DNA of 9,514 nt from an uncultured archaeon (lineage in GTDB: Archaea; Iainarchaeota; Iainarchaeia; Iainarchaeales; 0-14-0-20-30-16). How positions within the stretch are numbered: position 1 is the first letter of the stretch; each line of letters begins with the position of its first letter. Both the position numbers and the translations under genes were made by a program. This document shows, in pieces, positions 218 to 9,476 of this stretch. Location of the stretch: assembly GCA_964565125.1 (NCBI GenBank), contig CAZMCX010000010.1, forward strand, positions 7,369 to 16,882, in the 5' to 3' direction. A model generated the notes under the pieces. That model searched no databases, was not told the origin of the DNA, and saw only the letters and a list, made by a program, of their open reading frames with translations.

Positions 218-289
218 TAGCTGTGGCGTGCGCTTGCTTACAGATATTAAAGATTGCTTTTTATATCTTATAGCTGTTATTTTTACATC

Positions 290-937
290 ATGGGGAACTT
301 ATATACCTCCTTTGCGCAATTTGAAAAAGCATATGAGAATGAAGTGAAAAAAATAAAATCTAAAGAGAAGAATGCTCTAGTTTTCTATTTTAGAAAAGGG
401 GGTCTTGTAAAAACCAAGTATACCCCTCAATTAAGAGTTACATATCCAAGTAAGCAAAAAGTTAAAGAAGAACTTGTAAATTTATCTGCAAGAAGGGCAG
501 AAACAATGATCAAACTTAAGGAATGGGGCAAGATAAAATATGATGCAGATAACTACCTTAAAAAAACAAAGAGAAAGAGATTTTTTGATTCTTTATATTG
601 GAAACATAAAATGAAATCTCTTACTGATAAAGATTATCGAGAAGAAATAAAAAAATTAAAAATTCCGATGGATTTGATGGCAGATCCAAAGTTAAAAAAG
701 ATATTACATGCTTTTATGACAAACCAAACATATAGAGAAACTGTAATTGATACTGTTGAAAATTCGGTAGTTTATAGAGACAAAGGTTTTGGAGAACAAA
801 TTCTACAGGCAATAGAAATAAAAAAAGGAATTTCAGAAAAGAAAATAACTCTGTTTTCTGAAGTTTTGCAAGGTATTGATAATCTAATCCTTGGCTACAA
901 AGTTATAAATAGGTGGGTAAGTGTTAACAAAGACTGA
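290..937 (+). CDS. Hypothetical lysine-rich protein (~215 aa from ATG 290; ORF track extends to TTG 254)
   Basis: Long ORF in the ORF track. ATG at 290 corresponds to residue 13 of the listed translation. No motif I recognise. Its 3' end overlaps the hel308 GTG start by 17 nt, suggesting co-transcription and coupling. Confidence 0.6.
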   Translation: MGNLYTSFAQFEKAYENEVKKIKSKEKNALVFYFRKGGLVKTKYTPQLRVTYPSKQKVKEELVNLSARRAETMIKLKEWGKIKYDADNYLKKTKRKRFFDSLYWKHKMKSLTDKDYREEIKKLKIPMDLMADPKLKKILHAFMTNQTYRETVIDTVENSVVYRDKGFGEQILQAIEIKKGISEKKITLFSEVLQGIDNLILGYKVINRWVSVNKD

Positions 938-3002
938 GCTTTTAAACAAAGTTAAAGAGCTTAATAACATTGCTGATTTTAATGAAGTTCAAAATAAAGC
1001 AATTCCATTATTAGAAAAAAATATTGTAGTTTCTAGTCCAACTTCTTCTGGGAAAACTTTAATTGCCGAAATTGCATCTCTTGGCATTATTCTTAACAAA
1101 AAAAGAAAGGTAATTTACACCTGCCCATTAAAAGCGTTAGCAAGTGAGCATTATTCTAATTTCAAGAAAAAATATGAAAAAGAATTTGGAATAAAATGTG
1201 CGATATCTATTGGAGATTTAGATTCAAGTTCAAAGTATTTGGAAAATTACAACATTATTTTTACTACCTATGAAAAATTAGACTCTTTAATTAGGCACAA
1301 ATCTTTTTGGCTTTATTCTGTTGGGCTTTTGGTTATTGATGAATTGCATATGTTAGATTCTGATAGGGGGCCAACAATAGAAGTTTCTGTAATACAACTT
1401 AGCATAATGGTGAAAGACCTGCAAATTCTTGGATTGAGTGCTACAATTCCAAATTACAAACAGTTGGCAGAATGGCTAAATGCTGAGGCAGTATATTCGG
1501 AATATAGGCCCGTGGCTTTGAGAAAAGGGGTATTGGTAGAAAATAAACTTTATTTTGAAAAAGAAATAGAAGAAATAAATTTTGACAGTGCAAAAGAGTT
1601 ACATAACTTGATAAAAGACACTTTGAAAAAAAATAAGCAGGCTTTGATATTCACAAATACCCGAAAAAATGCACAGTCTTTAGCAAACCAAATAAAAACA
1701 ACAACATTAAATGAAAAAATAAATGAATATGATTTTGATTCCGAAAATCTAACTTCTTTTGATAAAGAAATTATTGATTTGATGCAACATGGTGTTGCAT
1801 TCCACCATGCCGGATTGAGGGCAGAGTTAAGAGAAAAAATAGAGGCTGATTTTAGAACTGGAAAAATAAAAATAATTTCTGCCACTCCAACTTTGGCCGC
1901 AGGAATTAATCTGCCAGCATTTAGAGTGATCATTCATACTCTTTTTAGACATGGTATTAACGGAATGCAAAAAATACCAATAAGGGAATATCACCAAATG
2001 GCTGGAAGAGCGGGGAGAGTAGGATATGATGAAAAAGGAGAGGCAATAATTCTTGGAAAAAATGAATACGAAAAAGATAAATTGTTTGAAGAATATATTT
2101 TTGCGGAACCAGAAGAAGTCCTTTCTCAAATAGGGAACTTAAGTGTTTTGAGAACTTTATTATTGTCATTAATTGCAAATGGAATAGTTTATGATGATGA
2201 AAGTATGCTTAATTTTTTTAAGAAAACATTGTATTATTTGCAATTTAAAAATGAGTCTTTGCTTTATGAAAGAGTCCGCTCTGTTTTAGACGAACTATTG
2301 TCTTATAGTTTCATAAAAATAACTTCAAAAATAGAAGCAACAGAAATTGGGAAAAGAGTTTCAGAACTTTATATTGATCCGTTTTCAGCGTATAATATAA
2401 TTAATTATTTTGAGTTCTTGGGCAAGCATAATAACGAGTTTGCGCAGCTTTATTGTTTAGTTAATACAGTGGAATTAAAGCCATATCCTACAGTTTCAAA
2501 AACAATGAGAGATATAGGTATAGAATTAAATGAAAAAAGTTCTTATTTTTTAGCAGACCCGTACGCAATTTTTGAAGAGTATGATATGCCAAACAAATTC
2601 TTGCTTGTAAAAATATTTTATGACTGGATAAGTGAAGTTTCGGATCAAGAGCTTTTGGATAGATATGATATGCAGCCCGGGATCTTGCATCAAAAGATAG
2701 AATCAATGAAGTGGATTGCTTATGCAACAAAGGAGTTGGCAGAACTCTCTGGTAGAGAAAAATATAAAGATTTGATAAAAGAAATTTCATTGTTTGAAAA
2801 GAGGTTGCAGTACGGAATAAGAAAAGATCTGCTATTTTTAGTAGAGCTTCCAGGAATAGGAAGAGTAAGAGCAAGAAAATTGTTTGCAGCAGGAGTTAGA
2901 AACATCGGAGATCTCAAGGGCGCAGACCCAATTAAGCTTGCAGGTTTAATAGGTCAAAAAGTAAGAGACAAATTATATGAACATCTGAAAATATTAAAGT
3001 AA
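921..3002 (+). CDS. hel308: Hel308/Ski2-like superfamily 2 DNA helicase
   Basis: 693 aa. Walker A SPTSSGKT (GKT codons 1050-1058), motif II DELH (1338-1349), SAT motif III, HHAGL and QMAGRAGR helicase motifs, and a C-terminal helix-hairpin-helix LPGIGRVRARKL typical of Hel308 domain 5. GTG start preceded by AGGTGG at 911-916. Confidence 0.9.
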   Translation: MLTKTELLNKVKELNNIADFNEVQNKAIPLLEKNIVVSSPTSSGKTLIAEIASLGIILNKKRKVIYTCPLKALASEHYSNFKKKYEKEFGIKCAISIGDLDSSSKYLENYNIIFTTYEKLDSLIRHKSFWLYSVGLLVIDELHMLDSDRGPTIEVSVIQLSIMVKDLQILGLSATIPNYKQLAEWLNAEAVYSEYRPVALRKGVLVENKLYFEKEIEEINFDSAKELHNLIKDTLKKNKQALIFTNTRKNAQSLANQIKTTTLNEKINEYDFDSENLTSFDKEIIDLMQHGVAFHHAGLRAELREKIEADFRTGKIKIISATPTLAAGINLPAFRVIIHTLFRHGINGMQKIPIREYHQMAGRAGRVGYDEKGEAIILGKNEYEKDKLFEEYIFAEPEEVLSQIGNLSVLRTLLLSLIANGIVYDDESMLNFFKKTLYYLQFKNESLLYERVRSVLDELLSYSFIKITSKIEATEIGKRVSELYIDPFSAYNIINYFEFLGKHNNEFAQLYCLVNTVELKPYPTVSKTMRDIGIELNEKSSYFLADPYAIFEEYDMPNKFLLVKIFYDWISEVSDQELLDRYDMQPGILHQKIESMKWIAYATKELAELSGREKYKDLIKEISLFEKRLQYGIRKDLLFLVELPGIGRVRARKLFAAGVRNIGDLKGADPIKLAGLIGQKVRDKLYEHLKILK

Positions 3003-5024: not shown

Positions 5025-6653
5025 ATGGCAGAAATGCAGAATCAGCAAAATGCGTTCTTGGAAGAGGGTGCAAAGAGAGTTAGAGGAAAAGATGCTCAAA
5101 GAATTAATATCTTGGTTGCGAGAGCAGTAGCTAACGCAGTTAGATCTACTTTGGGCCCAAAAGGAATGGACAAGATGATAGTTGACGAAATGGGGGATGT
5201 AACAATCTCAAATGATGGTGCAACTATTCTGAAAGAGATATCTATAGAACACCCAGTTGGGAAGATGATGGTTGACATTGCAAAAACTCAAGATACTGAG
5301 ATCGGGGACGGAACAACTACTGCGGTAGTGGTGGCTGGAGAGCTTCTTGCTGAGGCAGAAAAGCTTTTGGATAATGGAATACATCCTTCAAGTATAATTA
5401 ATGGTTATAGGTTGGCAACAACAAAAGCAATAGAATACTATAATGATATTTCTTACAAAGTTGACTATAAAGATGAAAAGAAATTATATAATATTGCAAT
5501 TACAGCTATGACTGGAAAGGCAGCGGAATCTTGTCAGAAATTAGCAAAACTTGTAATTGATGCAATTTCACAAATTATTGTTGTCGAAGATAACAAAATA
5601 ATTTATGATAATGATTATATAAAAATAGAAAAAAAATCAGGCGGAAGCTTAGAAGATAGTGAATTAATAAAAGGAATAGTAATAGATAAAGAAATAGTAA
5701 GTAATAGTATGCCAAAGAAAATAAACCTGGCAAAAATACTTCTTTTAGATGTTGCTTTGGAGATAAAAAGCCCAGAAACAGATACAAAAGTACAAATTAG
5801 TAGCCCAGATCAATTAGAGCAATTCTTAGAGCAAGAAGAAAGAATGATTTCTGATATGACTGAGAAAATAAAAGCATCCGGTGCAAATGTGGTAATTTGC
5901 CAAAAAGGAATTGATGATTTGGCCCAGCATTTCTTGACAGAAGCAGGAATTATTGCAATAAGAAGGGTAAAGAAATCAGATATCGATAAATTGTCAAAAG
6001 CAACAGGCGCAAAAGTTGCATCTAGAATAAAAGAAATAAATAAAACCTATTTAGGAAACGCAGATATAGTTCAAGAAAAGAAAATATCTGGTGAAGAGAT
6101 GGTATTTATTGAAGGCTGCAAAGATGCAAAGGCAGTAACGATATTTGTTCGGGGCGGAACAGATCATGTTGTAGATGAGGCAGAAAGAGCAATAGCTGAT
6201 GCTTTGGGTGCTGTAACTTCTGCATTAAAATCTGGCAAATATGTTGCTGGCGGCGGATCCTGTGAAATGGAAGTAGCGATAAGATTAAGGGATTATGCGA
6301 AGGAGATTGGCGGAAGAGAACAATTGGCAATAGATGCTTTTGCAAGTGCTTTAGAAATAATCCCGAGAACTTTAGCAGAATCTGCTGGAATGAATCCCTT
6401 AGATATGCTAGTTGCATTAAAGAACAGGCACAAGAAGGGGGAAATTGCTTCGGGCGTTGATGTATTGAATAGCACAATTGCTGATATGGAAAAGCTTAAT
6501 GTTATTGAACCAACAAACATAAAAGTTCAAGCAATAAATCTGGGATCTGAAGTATCTCAAATGATTCTGAGAATTGATGATATAATTGCAGGAAGCGGAA
6601 GATCCAAAGGCGGAATGCATAATATGCCACCGGGGATGGGGGATGCGGATTGA
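5025..6653 (+). CDS. ths: Thermosome subunit (group II chaperonin, Cpn60/TCP-1 family)
   Basis: 542 aa with classic motifs [26 protein letters not shown] and VAGGG, plus a Gly/Met-rich C-terminal tail [11 protein letters not shown]. Confidence 0.95.
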
Positions 6654-6739: not shown

Positions 6740-7079
6740 TGGGGTCACAGGGACTCGAACCCTGGTCCGCAGGTTTCTCCCGAGCCTTTTAATAAAGGCT
6801 ACGCTCGCCAAAATTGGGCTCATCTTCGAGAAGTGGCTTCATGCCACTAAAATGCCGGCTTTTTTTGAAGCCGCTCGATAACCCTTATCTTGGCCTTACC
6901 TGCTAATATCATCATCGCTAATTTAACAAATTAGCTCCGTCTTCACGCTCTCTTTACCTAAAGTTGTAAATGCCATTTATGGCATCCTTTTTTCTTTTGG
7001 TGAACTTATGCTTTTCTTTTTTTGAAAAAGAAAAGATTGCGACTGGAGCCTGAAGTGCTAGCCGCTACACTATGACCCC
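6740..7079 (-). tRNA. trnW: tRNA-Trp (anticodon CCA) with a ~268-nt intron between positions 37 and 38
   Basis: Folded by hand. 5' exon 7079-7043: GGGGTCA TA GTGT AGCGGCTA GCAC T TCAGG CTCCAG. 3' exon 6774-6740: A CCTGC GGAC CAGGG TTCGAGT CCCTG TGACCCC A. Seven-bp acceptor stem, A14, G18G19, A21, T54T55C56, A58 and archaeal-type discriminator A73 are present. No encoded CCA. One U27-C43 mismatch. Anticodon CCA at 7046-7044. Confidence 0.85.
6775..7042 (-). ncRNA. tRNA-Trp intron; candidate stable or circular intron-derived RNA
   Basis: Canonical hBHBh' motif. The anticodon stem is followed by a 4-bp helix C32-C35 (CTCC) paired with intron GGAG (6780-6777). This helix is flanked by 3-nt bulges A36-G37-T and A-A-A38, then a 2-bp outer helix CG/CG. 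Perfect hairpins on the minus strand: 7011-7035 (11 bp), 6970-6985 (6 bp), 6917-6935 (8 bp), 6856-6873 (6 bp), 6832-6848 (6 bp), 6783-6800 (7 bp). C-box-like AUGAUGA at 6915-6909. Confidence 0.75.
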
Positions 7080-7628: not shown

Positions 7629-8096
7629 ATGTACGAAAAAAAATATATGTTAATGGCTATTGATGAAGCAAAGAAGGCAGTAAAAAACAAACATGGCGGA
7701 CCTTTTGGCGCTGTACTTCTTGTTGACGGAAAGATATTTAAAGCACATAATATGGTTTTGAAAGACCATGATCCTACTAGGCACGCAGAAATAAGAGTTA
7801 TTTCTAAGTGTTGTAAAAAACTAAAGAAAGAAAAACTGAAAAATGCAGTTTTATACTCTTCTACGGAACCTTGTCCTATGTGTTTATCTGCAATCCATTG
7901 GGCTGGAATTAACACAGTATATTATTCTACAGAAATTGAAGATGCAGACAAAGCAGGATTTGATGAAATTAATTTGCATGCAAAAGAAATAATTAAAATT
8001 GCAAAATTAAAAATGAAAGTCCAAGGCGGCTTAGAACGAGAAAAAGGATTAGAAGTATTTGAATTATTGAAAAAAATTAAATTAAAGAGATATTAA
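7629..8096 (+). CDS. CDA-fold zinc deaminase, GuaD-like (probable guanine deaminase; nucleoside/nucleotide deaminase family)
   Basis: 155 aa. Zinc motifs HAE (DPTRHAEI) and PCPMC (STEPCPMCLSAIHWAG). GGPFGAV near the N-terminus and DADKAGFD after the zinc site closely resemble Bacillus subtilis GuaD as I remember it. TadA-type or dCMP deaminase cannot be excluded without alignment. Confidence 0.75.
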   Translation: MYEKKYMLMAIDEAKKAVKNKHGGPFGAVLLVDGKIFKAHNMVLKDHDPTRHAEIRVISKCCKKLKKEKLKNAVLYSSTEPCPMCLSAIHWAGINTVYYSTEIEDADKAGFDEINLHAKEIIKIAKLKMKVQGGLEREKGLEVFELLKKIKLKRY

Positions 8097-8116
8097 ATTC
8101 CGAGGGCTTCTCTTAC

Positions 8117-8126
8117 TTTTCTTTTT
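8117..8126 (+). terminator. Oligo-T tract after the deaminase gene
   Basis: TTTTCTTTTT lies ~20 nt after the stop codon in the 37-nt convergent gap. Confidence 0.4.
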
Positions 8127-8133
8127 GTAAGAT

Positions 8134-8373
8134 CTAAAGTGTATTTTCCTCTGTTAAGTAAACCTTTCTTTGTGGCCCTTTTTCTCTTGGCGCACGAAAT
8201 CTATTATTTTTAATTTTGATTGCGGATTCTAATAATGAGTGCATTAGTTCTTTGCTTGCTCCTTGTTGTCTTGCACTTTCTAGAATAGATTTTAATCTTA
8301 GATCTACAGAATTAGTTTGTTTTCTTCTTAAAATGCTTTCAAGATGTCTTTCTGGTTTGTATGGTTTGGGCAT
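8134..8373 (-). CDS. Small basic hypothetical protein (79 aa) coupled to the GGDEF gene
   Basis: The ATG starts 1 nt after the upstream TAA stop (minus strand TAA-T-ATG). It contains three similar helical segments: HLESILRR, LKSILESARQ, HSLLESAIK. No recognised domain. Confidence 0.5.
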   Translation of the reverse strand: MPKPYKPERHLESILRRKQTNSVDLRLKSILESARQQGASKELMHSLLESAIKIKNNRFRAPREKGPQRKVYLTEENTL

Positions 8374-8374
8374 A

Positions 8375-9268
8375 TTAACGCCTTGCTTCTTTCATTCTTG
8401 CTTTGTTTTCTTTCATTCTTGTATCTGCTCTGTCTCTTAAATTAAGGATATACCTGTCAATTTCTCTTTTGTCATTGTTAGTTAATTGATTATACCTTGC
8501 TAATGAATTAACAGTTACTGGGCCTTTTTCTAAAGACATAGTGTGCCCTACAGCAAAGGATATTTCGGGAATATTAATTTGTGCAACTTCTAGGGCTTTA
8601 GTAACTCTGTGTCTCTTTTCGTTCCAAATTTTTTTTGCAATCCTTGTCAAATGTTCTACAAATCTGGTTACTACTTTCTCATATCTTTGATTTTTCCGTC
8701 TTGGCATACTAAGTAGAATTTCAAATTCATCTCCACCAGTTCTTGCCATTGTGAATTTTATGTCTGATTTATCATATAGTTTTGCTAACTCAACACCCAT
8801 CTGGCCCATAGTTCTTAAATAATTGTCACCTAAGCTGTGAGAGATAGAATCGTTTATTTTCTTTAAATTATTCATATCTATAACAAAGTAGGAAAAAACC
8901 CTGTCTGAATTTGTAACATAATGCCTTATCCTATTGTTGAAAGCGTCTTTGTTTAACAGGCCAGTAGTTTTGTCTCTTTCTGCCATAGCAGTAATAATAC
9001 CTAAATTTTTTGTAACTAAACGAGGATATGCTTGATCAAATTCTCTTAAAAACTCGTGTGCCCCCCCTTCCTTTGCTCTTTCTCGTAGTTCAGGGTAATT
9101 TAGGGCCATTCTTTCTAATAATTGTGCTCTTCCCATGGGGGTATTTAATGGTTGTTTTCTTCTATCTAACTCTACTACGCCGTGTTCAGGAATAATCGAC
9201 CTTGTTGTTCTTCGTTCATAATGTCTTAAATTAGGACTTACTTTCACCAATTTCCTTACTTTTGCCAT
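8375..9268 (-). CDS. GGDEF-domain protein (putative diguanylate cyclase) with an uncharacterised ~95-aa N-terminal region
   Basis: 297 aa. Linker TTGLLNKDAFNN. Motif VIDMNNLKKINDSISHSLGDNYL matches the GGDEF-domain consensus DxDxFKxINDxxGHxxGD. Intact RTGGDEF (GGDEF codons 8723-8737). C-terminal LRDRADTRMKENKA matches the ADxAmYxAK helix. The domain spans roughly 8414-8971. Confidence 0.85.
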   Translation of the reverse strand: MAKVRKLVKVSPNLRHYERRTTRSIIPEHGVVELDRRKQPLNTPMGRAQLLERMALNYPELRERAKEGGAHEFLREFDQAYPRLVTKNLGIITAMAERDKTTGLLNKDAFNNRIRHYVTNSDRVFSYFVIDMNNLKKINDSISHSLGDNYLRTMGQMGVELAKLYDKSDIKFTMARTGGDEFEILLSMPRRKNQRYEKVVTRFVEHLTRIAKKIWNEKRHRVTKALEVAQINIPEISFAVGHTMSLEKGPVTVNSLARYNQLTNNDKREIDRYILNLRDRADTRMKENKARMKEARR

Positions 9269-9290
9269 AATGAATTATAACTGGCTCAGG

Positions 9291-9298
9291 TATAAAAA
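9291..9298 (-). promoter_or_regulatory. Candidate TATA box for the GGDEF operon (leaderless geometry)
   Basis: The minus strand reads TTTTTATA, centred ~26 nt upstream of ATG 9268, with no SD. Confidence 0.4.
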
Positions 9299-9381
9299 GA
9301 TTTCTATGATATAAAATGTATAAATTACTAGAATATAAGTATGCTTGAGCATAGCGAAACATACTGTTTTTGGGCAACTTA

Positions 9382-9404: not shown

Positions 9405-9476
9405 GCGGTTGTGATGTAACGGTTAGCATAATGGCCTTCCAAGCCATTCGTTCGGGTTCGAATCCCGGCGACCGCA
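9405..9476 (+). tRNA. trnG: tRNA-Gly (anticodon UCC), intronless
   Basis: Folded by hand: GCGGTTG TG ATGT AACGGTTA GCAT A ATGGC CTTCCAA GCCAT TCGT TCGGG TTCGAAT CCCGG CGACCGC A. 72 nt. G18G19, TTCGAAT T-loop and discriminator A73 are present. No encoded CCA. Confidence 0.93.

Follow-up and report, generated by a model that had tools for sequence, protein, structure and literature searches.

Does an archaeal genome encode, as a gene of its own, a second-messenger synthase of the GGDEF type? The question is raised by a 9,514-nucleotide (nt) stretch (hereafter the window) of contig CAZMCX010000010.1, which derives from an uncultured, small-genome archaeon of the Iainarchaeota, a DPANN group (Nanobdellati). 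On its minus strand, the window encodes a stand-alone 297-amino-acid (aa) protein with a GGDEF domain. Our analysis suggests that this gene was probably inherited vertically within Archaea and encodes a true nucleotide cyclase of the GGDEF family, and that its product is most likely a dimeric cyclic-dinucleotide synthase that would form cyclic diguanylate (c-di-GMP).

Reviews of the field confine c-di-GMP and its enzymes essentially to Bacteria (PMC5847659, PMC10249747, PMC10086821, bioRxiv 10.1101/2021.11.05.467447). In 2018, RCIX2274 (CAJ37382) of Methanocella arvoryzae was the sole archaeal GGDEF domain then recognised (PMC5847659), and GGDEF matches in archaeal metagenome-assembled genomes (MAGs) have been flagged as possible contamination (PMC5847659; bioRxiv 10.1101/2021.11.05.467447). 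Braun et al. 2021 mentioned, without analysis, that BLAST finds over 300 such sequences in archaeal MAGs, of which many are Asgard and DPANN (PMC8646023), and Römling 2022 wrote that such proteins ‘need to be confirmed in archaeal contigs’ (PMC10086821). A preliminary description of the window had held that this kind of signalling is essentially absent from Archaea; the reviews still say so, but the BLAST hits had already softened the statement. Our literature search found no paper describing an archaeal GGDEF family. One close relative of the window protein (P0004) is annotated by NCBI as ‘GGDEF domain-containing protein’, and the domain call itself is therefore not new. What is new is that native status is shown, that the proteins fall into a clade with an N-terminal motif of its own, and that this clade has Asp and Asn subtypes and evolves fast.

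Domain, fold and active site

Profile searches with the 297-aa protein gave 56.4 bits for PF00990 (expectation value (E) 3.9e-15; cut-off 23.8; residues 97–210), far above chance, and 53.4 bits for TIGR00254, for which the cut-off is 37.4. The profile check proposed in the preliminary description thus returned a canonical GGDEF domain. Its active-site register was checked by a HMMER alignment to DgcR (6zxm). As had been claimed earlier, GGDEF occupies residues 178–182, and D131, N139 and D148 follow the spacing D-x7-N-x8-D; R176 lies two residues ahead of GGDEF. The PleD counterparts we take to be D327 for the Mg-binding Asp, N335 and D344 for the residues that contact guanine, and R366, K442 and R446 for those that contact the phosphates. 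Across 19 relatives aligned at 26–69% identity, D131, N133, L135, K136, N139, D140, H144, G147, R176, G178, D180, E181, F182 and K289 are invariant. The Mg-binding D131, on strand β1, is in addition invariant in 257 other GGDEF domains. One distant relative has GSDEF instead of GGDEF, with D180, E181 and F182 unchanged as in all 19. Candidate phosphate-binding residues are the invariant R176 and K289, together with K293, which stands where PleD-type enzymes have Arg. Judged by the DgcR register and the known PleD residues, the protein appears to have an intact Mg ligand, an Asn/Asp pair for the guanine, Arg and Lys for the phosphates and a Glu as general base. The role of the general-base Glu was assigned by Hallberg et al. 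2019 (PMC6456294).

Two further claims of the preliminary description, that an RxxD inhibitory site (I-site) is missing and that the N-terminal ~95 aa contain neither a transmembrane segment nor a sensor motif, are borne out. The segment at the I-site position, five residues upstream of GGDEF, reads D169-I-K-F172, and there is consequently no RxxD there; the only RxxD strings in the protein are at residues 75 and 268. No hydrophobic segment was found in the protein (maximum Kyte–Doolittle mean over 19 residues, 0.90), and residues 1–96 match no Pfam domain. These residues do contain an Arg-rich motif, which in the window protein reads R15-H-Y-E-R-R20 ... L-D35-R-R-K-Q-P40-L-N-T-P-M-G. Within the catalytic domain, the alignment and the AlphaFold2 (AF2) secondary structure reveal a long family-specific helix (residues 196–226) that contains an invariant W215. 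The protein as a whole is strongly basic, with an isoelectric point (pI) of 10.2.

The AF2 monomer model has a mean predicted local distance difference test (pLDDT) score of 75.5, with blocks of 81–93 over most of the domain. Residues 1–45 are predicted to be disordered (pLDDT below 50) and are followed by helices 44–67 and 71–96 and then by the α/β core. In this monomer model the two helices (pLDDT 53–75) sit directly N-terminal to the GGDEF domain, as in stalk-type cyclases, and may form a dimerisation stalk. A Foldseek search of the PDB returned GGDEF-domain proteins as all 50 of its best matches, nearly all of them diguanylate cyclases, with E down to 8e-8. The leading matches were PleD, SiaD, SadC, DgcZ, WspR, DgcB and a bacteriophytochrome cyclase, and the alignments reach into the stalks of SiaD, DgcB and WspR. 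Likewise, a profile of the close family, searched against PDB sequences, matched GGDEF-domain proteins in 38 of 38 cases; most are named diguanylate cyclases, and the best is DgcR 6zxm. The preliminary description had allowed that the domain might belong to a non-cyclase palm family. Such an assignment (Cas10, adenylate cyclase or polymerase) is rejected, both the sequence and the fold searches having returned GGDEF only.

Native status and relatives of the gene

The composition of the GGDEF gene matches that of its surroundings. Its GC content is 34.5%, against 33.1% for the window, and its GC content at third codon positions is 0.26. Its codon-usage correlation of 0.80 falls within the range of its neighbours (0.71–0.92), and the tetranucleotide correlation across the gene stays at 0.89–0.92 with no break. 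The gene order tRNA-Gly, GGDEF, variable open reading frames (ORFs), dCMP deaminase and PUA is repeated at three other loci: L001, on a 238-kb contig of the Ca. Iainarchaeum MAG GCA_028710695.1; L002, on a 51-kb contig of the uncultured archaeon GCA_964480435.1; and L134. In L001 and L002 the order continues with the thermosome and U32 peptidase genes, and in L001 additionally with Hel308. A fourth locus, L133, retains tRNA-Gly and GGDEF together with one end of the deaminase gene. L133 and L134 are from ENA assemblies, and the matching loci as a whole come from independent NCBI, ENA and JGI assemblies.

Upstream of the gene, a promoter block of ~55 nt is near-identical in the window, L001 and L134, though their GGDEF proteins share only 47–69% identity. 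It carries a TTTTTATA box at −30 to −23 from the ATG, a geometry that fits a leaderless or near-leaderless mRNA, as which the gene would be expressed. Since dN/dS of the gene is 0.12–0.42, with dS saturated, the codon comparison indicates purifying selection on the protein. Synteny kept across independent assemblies, an archaeal promoter, matching composition and purifying selection on the protein show a gene that is native to the archaeon and probably vertically inherited, and at least one GGDEF lineage that is truly archaeal. The same synteny speaks against a gene restricted to bacterial-like or mobile segments. The preliminary description had judged the gene ‘native or well domesticated’ from its neighbours (tRNA-Gly, thermosome, Hel308 and an intron-containing tRNA, all found in the window) and from its leaderless TATA geometry, and our comparisons agree on each count. 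It had also raised the prospect of a chimeric contig, for which no break in composition, codon usage or tetranucleotides was seen.

Close relatives of the protein are rare: there are only five among 5.8 billion clusters, and 2 of 185,579 GTDB species representatives carry one. An exhaustive search of representatives gave four proteins at E <= 1e-30, followed by a second tier of 230–330 aa that match through the N-terminus. The resulting clade comprises ~21 clusters of 230–330-aa proteins, all with R-x-x-E-R-R ... (L/V)-D-R-R-x-x-P-x-x-[ST] ahead of the helices; the motif is kept in all full-length close relatives and in the distant ones. In a neighbour-joining tree of 90 sequences, built from the GGDEF domain only, the 21 motif-bearing proteins form one clade. 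Bootstrap values are 180/200 for the close family and, for the two subtypes described below, 172/200 (A) and 177/200 (B). Wherever the contexts of distant members include marker genes, these are archaeal (PriS, PriL, GINS, eIF2-alpha and class-III signal pilin). The closest bacterial GGDEF domains are Clostridia-type and share the D-x-N-x-L-K variant of strand β1, which hints at a possible donor of the archaeal domain. Scans of metagenomes and viruses returned generic GGDEF domains only, and none of the loci so retrieved proved, when checked for the motif, to encode another member of the family.

Divergence, product and rival explanations

The GGDEF protein has diverged much faster than the proteins encoded around it. 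It is 47–52% identical to its counterparts in L001 (1087–1968) and L002 (10001–10990), whereas its neighbours are 85–92% (L001) and 61–94% (L002) identical. Between the window and L001, protein identity is 92% for the U32 peptidase, 91% for the deaminase, 86% for PUA, 85% for the thermosome, 77% for the small protein encoded downstream of the cyclase and 47% for GGDEF itself. The flanking DNA of these two loci is 82–86% identical, and half of the GGDEF gene is not alignable. The corresponding rate of non-synonymous change (dN) is 0.50 for GGDEF and 0.04–0.09 for the neighbours, that is, 6–12 times higher. The same contrast recurs in a distant pair, L006 and L009, in which PriS is 88% and GGDEF 38% identical. 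A separate observation concerns the flanks: the thermosome (5025–6653) is 94% identical to that of L002 and 85% to that of L001, and U32, PUA and deaminase show the reverse (92/86/91% to L001, 71/61/71% to L002). These opposite patterns suggest recombination or a mosaic among the lineages.

The divergence includes the residue that would read the base, and two subtypes occupy the same locus. Subtype A, which consists of the window protein, P0002 and P0003, has Asp at position 148; subtype B, which consists of P0004, P0005, P0023 and probably the truncated P0024, has Asn in those sequences that cover the position, as does P0033. With Asn at the base-reading residue in subtype B, the product may for that reason not be uniform across the family.

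These features fit the following mechanism. From its own TATA promoter, the gene would be transcribed together with a small downstream ORF as a leaderless or near-leaderless mRNA. Helices 44–96 would pair two GGDEF domains, each of which, by analogy with PleD-type enzymes, would bind one Mg-GTP, with D131 and D180 at the metal, N139 and D148 at the guanine and R176, K289 and K293 at the phosphates. E181 would then deprotonate the 3′-OH of the GTP on the other subunit, and c-di-GMP would be formed. Because the RxxD I-site is absent, classical product inhibition would be missing. If an element of the protein serves in regulation or binds a ligand or a partner, the conserved, disordered Arg-rich motif at the N-terminus is the likeliest one, although this assignment is speculative, and the optional, presumably co-transcribed basic protein is the only candidate downstream target seen.

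Several observations weigh against a c-di-GMP synthase. No archaeon has yet been found to contain the molecule (PMC10249747, PMC8646023). For the window and ~70 kb of related loci, Pfam listings contain no EAL, HD-GYP or PilZ domain, and no c-di-GMP riboswitch was seen there; the preliminary description had already noticed that such a protein partner is missing from the window, and Rfam found no riboswitch receptor in the window or in eight loci. At the active site, K107 aligns with the first Arg of an N-R-R motif, which we infer to be Arg537 of PMC6456294, the cross-dimer residue. An Arg there is found in 94% of predicted diguanylate cyclases and has been proposed to stack on the guanine of the partner subunit (PMC6456294); it is typical, not strictly defining. 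Of 257 other GGDEF domains retrieved, 197 have R and 38 have K at this position; within the family the position is K (11), E (8) or another residue, with Glu, Thr, Val and Ala in distant relatives. The Asn found at position 148 in subtype B occurs in none of the 257. Finally, the stalk helices are of moderate confidence only and contain prolines, and the wide clade has a weak bootstrap value (19/200; 17 members).

The two active-site points are also those that favour an active GGDEF-fold synthase with another product, be it cyclic GMP-AMP (cGAMP), another mixed or linear dinucleotide, or a product that depends on the subtype. In Hypr enzymes the cross-dimer position, here Lys or other residues, shifts the product ratio (PMC6456294), and the Asn of subtype B lies at the Watson–Crick face. 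The motif is moreover GGDEF and not GGEEF, and the ‘Goldilocks’ model (PMC6456294) lets a shorter base-reading residue stay compatible with activity. By contrast, the window allele has both Asp148 and Asn139, mutational work shows that an Asp at that site makes the enzyme specific for GTP, Hypr backgrounds included (S348D, PMC6456294), and Ser or Thr occurs at the base-reading position in no family member. We consider another product unlikely for these reasons. The earlier prediction of GTP use rather than Hypr-type synthesis would stand on D148 and on the lack of Ser/Thr in the family; it is to be qualified by K107 in place of the cross-dimer Arg and by Asn148 in the sister alleles.

A different role is suggested by the islet that separates the GGDEF gene from the convergent dCMP deaminase gene (Table 1), and of which tRNA-Gly is the constant edge in every close-family locus. 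In the window, the islet encodes a 79-aa basic protein whose ATG lies 1 nt past the GGDEF stop codon; with this operon spacing, the two ORFs would be co-transcribed. The model of the 79-aa protein is of low confidence (pLDDT 66). This N-domain partner is present in three of five loci (the window, L001 and L002), alone or fused to a C-domain of ~170 aa. Neither domain has a match in Pfam, NCBIfam, PADLOC, PHROGs, PDB sequences or PDB folds, and the 79-aa partner bears no significant similarity to the N-terminus of the cyclase (E 0.34). Because it is optional across loci and without a family match, it is a candidate accessory protein or receptor only, not an obligatory one. In L004 (5786–6739), a variant of the L002 locus, the partner ORF is extended, with a length of 317 aa, and there is no dCMP deaminase gene, which looks like a deletion polymorphism.

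Such an islet could belong to a conflict or defence module with CBASS-like logic, in which the cyclase would generate the signal and the variable downstream proteins would be sensor or effector. It is small, variable and next to a tRNA gene, and it holds GGDEF alone or with N-domain, C-domain and N+C fusion proteins; the cyclase exceeds the flanking genes 6–12-fold in amino-acid divergence, and its two alleles, though far apart in sequence, stand between near-identical flanks and promoter. Against this, PADLOC matched neither the cyclase nor the 79-aa partner nor the C-domain proteins; a search for effector domains (nuclease, TIR, patatin or transmembrane) recognised none, and the islet showed neither an integrase nor a repeat. 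Two of the five loci lack the partner, distant relatives lie among housekeeping genes, and dN/dS is below 1. A defence function is accordingly quite improbable, and the suggestion of a defence module in the preliminary description finds no support in the PADLOC search. The PHROG matches of the cyclase are to generic GGDEF families without assigned function. With the dCMP/cytidine deaminase (7629–8096), which looks like a housekeeping enzyme, PADLOC weakly matched a defence model of the dCTPase type (29.9 bits); the match covers ~50 residues around the zinc-binding motif and probably reflects shared deaminase-fold similarity only.

Many bacterial GGDEF domains are degenerate, and the window protein might in the same way be a catalytically silent nucleotide receptor or scaffold. 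Its high pI, the missing canonical cross-dimer Arg and the lack of a turnover enzyme nearby would agree with this, but degenerate domains normally lose the motif or the metal and base ligands, all of which are invariant here over deep divergence, and the RxxD I-site, through which GGDEF receptors as a rule bind c-di-GMP, is lacking; we rate a silent domain as very improbable. That bacterial DNA was joined to an archaeal contig through an error of assembly or binning is hardly credible: this idea has in its favour the general worry about GGDEF and HD-GYP matches in archaeal MAGs (PMC5847659; bioRxiv 10.1101/2021.11.05.467447) and the fact that the closest non-family matches are bacterial, but these matches span ~31–40% of the protein at 33–46% identity, and the unbroken composition, codon and tetranucleotide profiles, the flanking archaeal tRNA-Gly and housekeeping genes, the TATA-type promoter kept between loci and the same arrangement in independent assemblies, including the 51-kb and 238-kb contigs, effectively refute it.

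An archaeal GGDEF cyclase, with c-di-GMP as its most likely product, remains our preferred reading. A wider proposal can be built on it, which we regard as possible but doubtful: with the window protein as its founding member, there may be a clade of cyclic-dinucleotide synthases in DPANN archaea that has a conserved Arg-rich N-terminal module, fast-evolving Asp/Asn alleles and non-bacterial receptors (possibly the orphan protein), whose product is perhaps allele-dependent and which might act in symbiont–host or virus conflict. If such a clade of synthases exists, Archaea would have in it their first bona fide second-messenger system based on GGDEF. The question of c-di-GMP-type signalling in Archaea becomes testable at the bench now that a 297-aa protein is defined for it. 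The natural Asp/Asn variants at the base-reading position offer material for studies of GGDEF product specificity, and the N-terminal motif and the orphan partner are places in which to seek non-bacterial regulation or receptors.

Other features and comparison with known systems

Table 1. Features of the window and of the islet in related loci. Positions refer to the window unless another locus is named.
Feature	Position	Strand	Evidence or content
Stand-alone GGDEF protein gene, 297 aa, ATG start, pI 10.2	8375..9268	-	ORF, PF00990, TIGR00254, AF2, Foldseek, orthologues P0002-P0005, P0023, P0024
GGDEF catalytic domain, residues 97-297	8378..8980	-	19-sequence alignment, DgcR 6zxm register, AF2 secondary structure
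GGDEF signature, residues 178-182, GGTGGAGATGAATTT on minus strand	8723..8737	-	Translation
Two predicted helices, residues 44-67 and 71-96, running into GGDEF domain	8981..9139	-	AF2, Foldseek
N-terminal Arg-rich family motif, residues 15-46	9131..9226	-	Conservation in relatives
Promoter block, TTTTTATA box at 9291-9298 (-30 to -23 from ATG)	9269..9325	-	Alignment with L001 and L134 upstream sequence
tRNA-Gly(UCC), divergent from GGDEF gene	9405-9476	+	tRNA search; same arrangement in L001, L002, L004, L133, L134
79-aa basic orphan protein ‘MPKPYKPERH...’, pI 10.4, predicted three-helix	8134..8373	-	ATG 1 nt past GGDEF stop codon
Islet, window	8097-8374		79-aa N-domain protein
Islet, L001	1969-3535		86-aa N-domain protein, 174-aa C-domain protein, 267-aa N+C fusion
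Islet, L002	10991-11749		251-aa protein: N-domain fused to ~170-aa C-domain
Islet, L134	2155-2184		No gene
Islet, L133	1407		No gene
Hel308-type helicase with archaeal domain 4	921-3002		Pfam
Thermosome subunit	5025-6653		Pfam
tRNA-Trp(CCA), 268-nt intron	c[6740..7079]	-	

Among the remaining features of the window, the tRNA-Trp(CCA) was missed both by default ARAGORN and by Rfam at the gathering score. Its exon ends are kept in L001 (Rfam tRNA, 44 bits) and in L002. The intron carries a C-box-like GATGATGA, which resembles the box C/D RNA of euryarchaeal pre-tRNA-Trp introns. A 227-aa ORF with a TTG start (254–937, plus strand) overlaps the start of Hel308 by 17 nt; searches of Pfam, NCBIfam, PADLOC and PHROGs gave nothing significant for it.

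The distant relatives of the cyclase have surroundings of their own. In L005 (2434–4144) and L011 (2515–4237), PriL overlaps the GGDEF start, beside T2SSF and a class-III-signal pilin; in L006–L009, PriS, GINS51, eIF2-alpha, PAC2 and SMC lie downstream of GGDEF (L006 8001–10603; L009 974–2321). A functional link to primase is not conserved, because L132 retains the upstream genes and has a pyruvate-kinase-like gene downstream instead; the association may be coincidental and is not relied on here. Directly upstream of GGDEF, one distant lineage encodes a 271–287-aa membrane protein of no known family (L006 7051–7878, L009 55–870, L132 3039–3902), which evolves as fast as the cyclase (37–60% identity) and could be a sensor partner. 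It was considered as a homologue of the 79-aa partner and proved unrelated.

The window protein resembles the bacterial diguanylate cyclases PleD, WspR, DgcZ and especially SiaD and DgcB in its GGDEF fold, Mg-binding Asp, Asn/Asp pair, Arg before GGDEF, general-base Glu and C-terminal Lys. SiaD and DgcB have an N-terminal helical stalk, and the window protein is likewise predicted to have a helix that runs into the domain. Unlike the bacterial cyclases, it is found in an archaeal host, has no receiver, PAS, GAF or transmembrane sensor domain and no RxxD I-site, carries Lys for the cross-dimer Arg, an Arg-rich N-terminal motif and a long helix insertion with W215, and is very basic. The C-terminal ending also differs, being A-D-x-R-M-Y-x-x-K-x-x-M-K here and AD-ALY-AK-GRN in bacteria.

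Archaea are host to other nucleotide second-messenger synthases, namely DacZ, which makes c-di-AMP, and the cyclic-oligoadenylate synthase Cas10, the palm domain of which is distantly related to GGDEF. The window protein has no DAC or Cas10 match, however, and the profile and fold searches gave PF00990 diguanylate cyclases only. The Hypr enzymes GacA and Bd0367, which synthesize 3′,3′-cGAMP, share with it the GGDEF rather than GGEEF motif and a non-Arg cross-dimer residue (PMC6456294). They have Ser or Thr at the Watson–Crick-face position (GacA S348), where the window protein has D148 and its family only D or N, and the window protein also lacks a receiver domain. Finally, RCIX2274 of Methanocella arvoryzae, like the window protein, is a GGDEF domain in an archaeal genome (PMC5847659). 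By its description, RCIX2274 is a bacterial-type REC-PAS-PocR-GGDEF-HD-GYP protein (bioRxiv 10.1101/2021.11.05.467447), whereas the protein analysed here is short, stands alone and belongs to a DPANN clade with conserved synteny.

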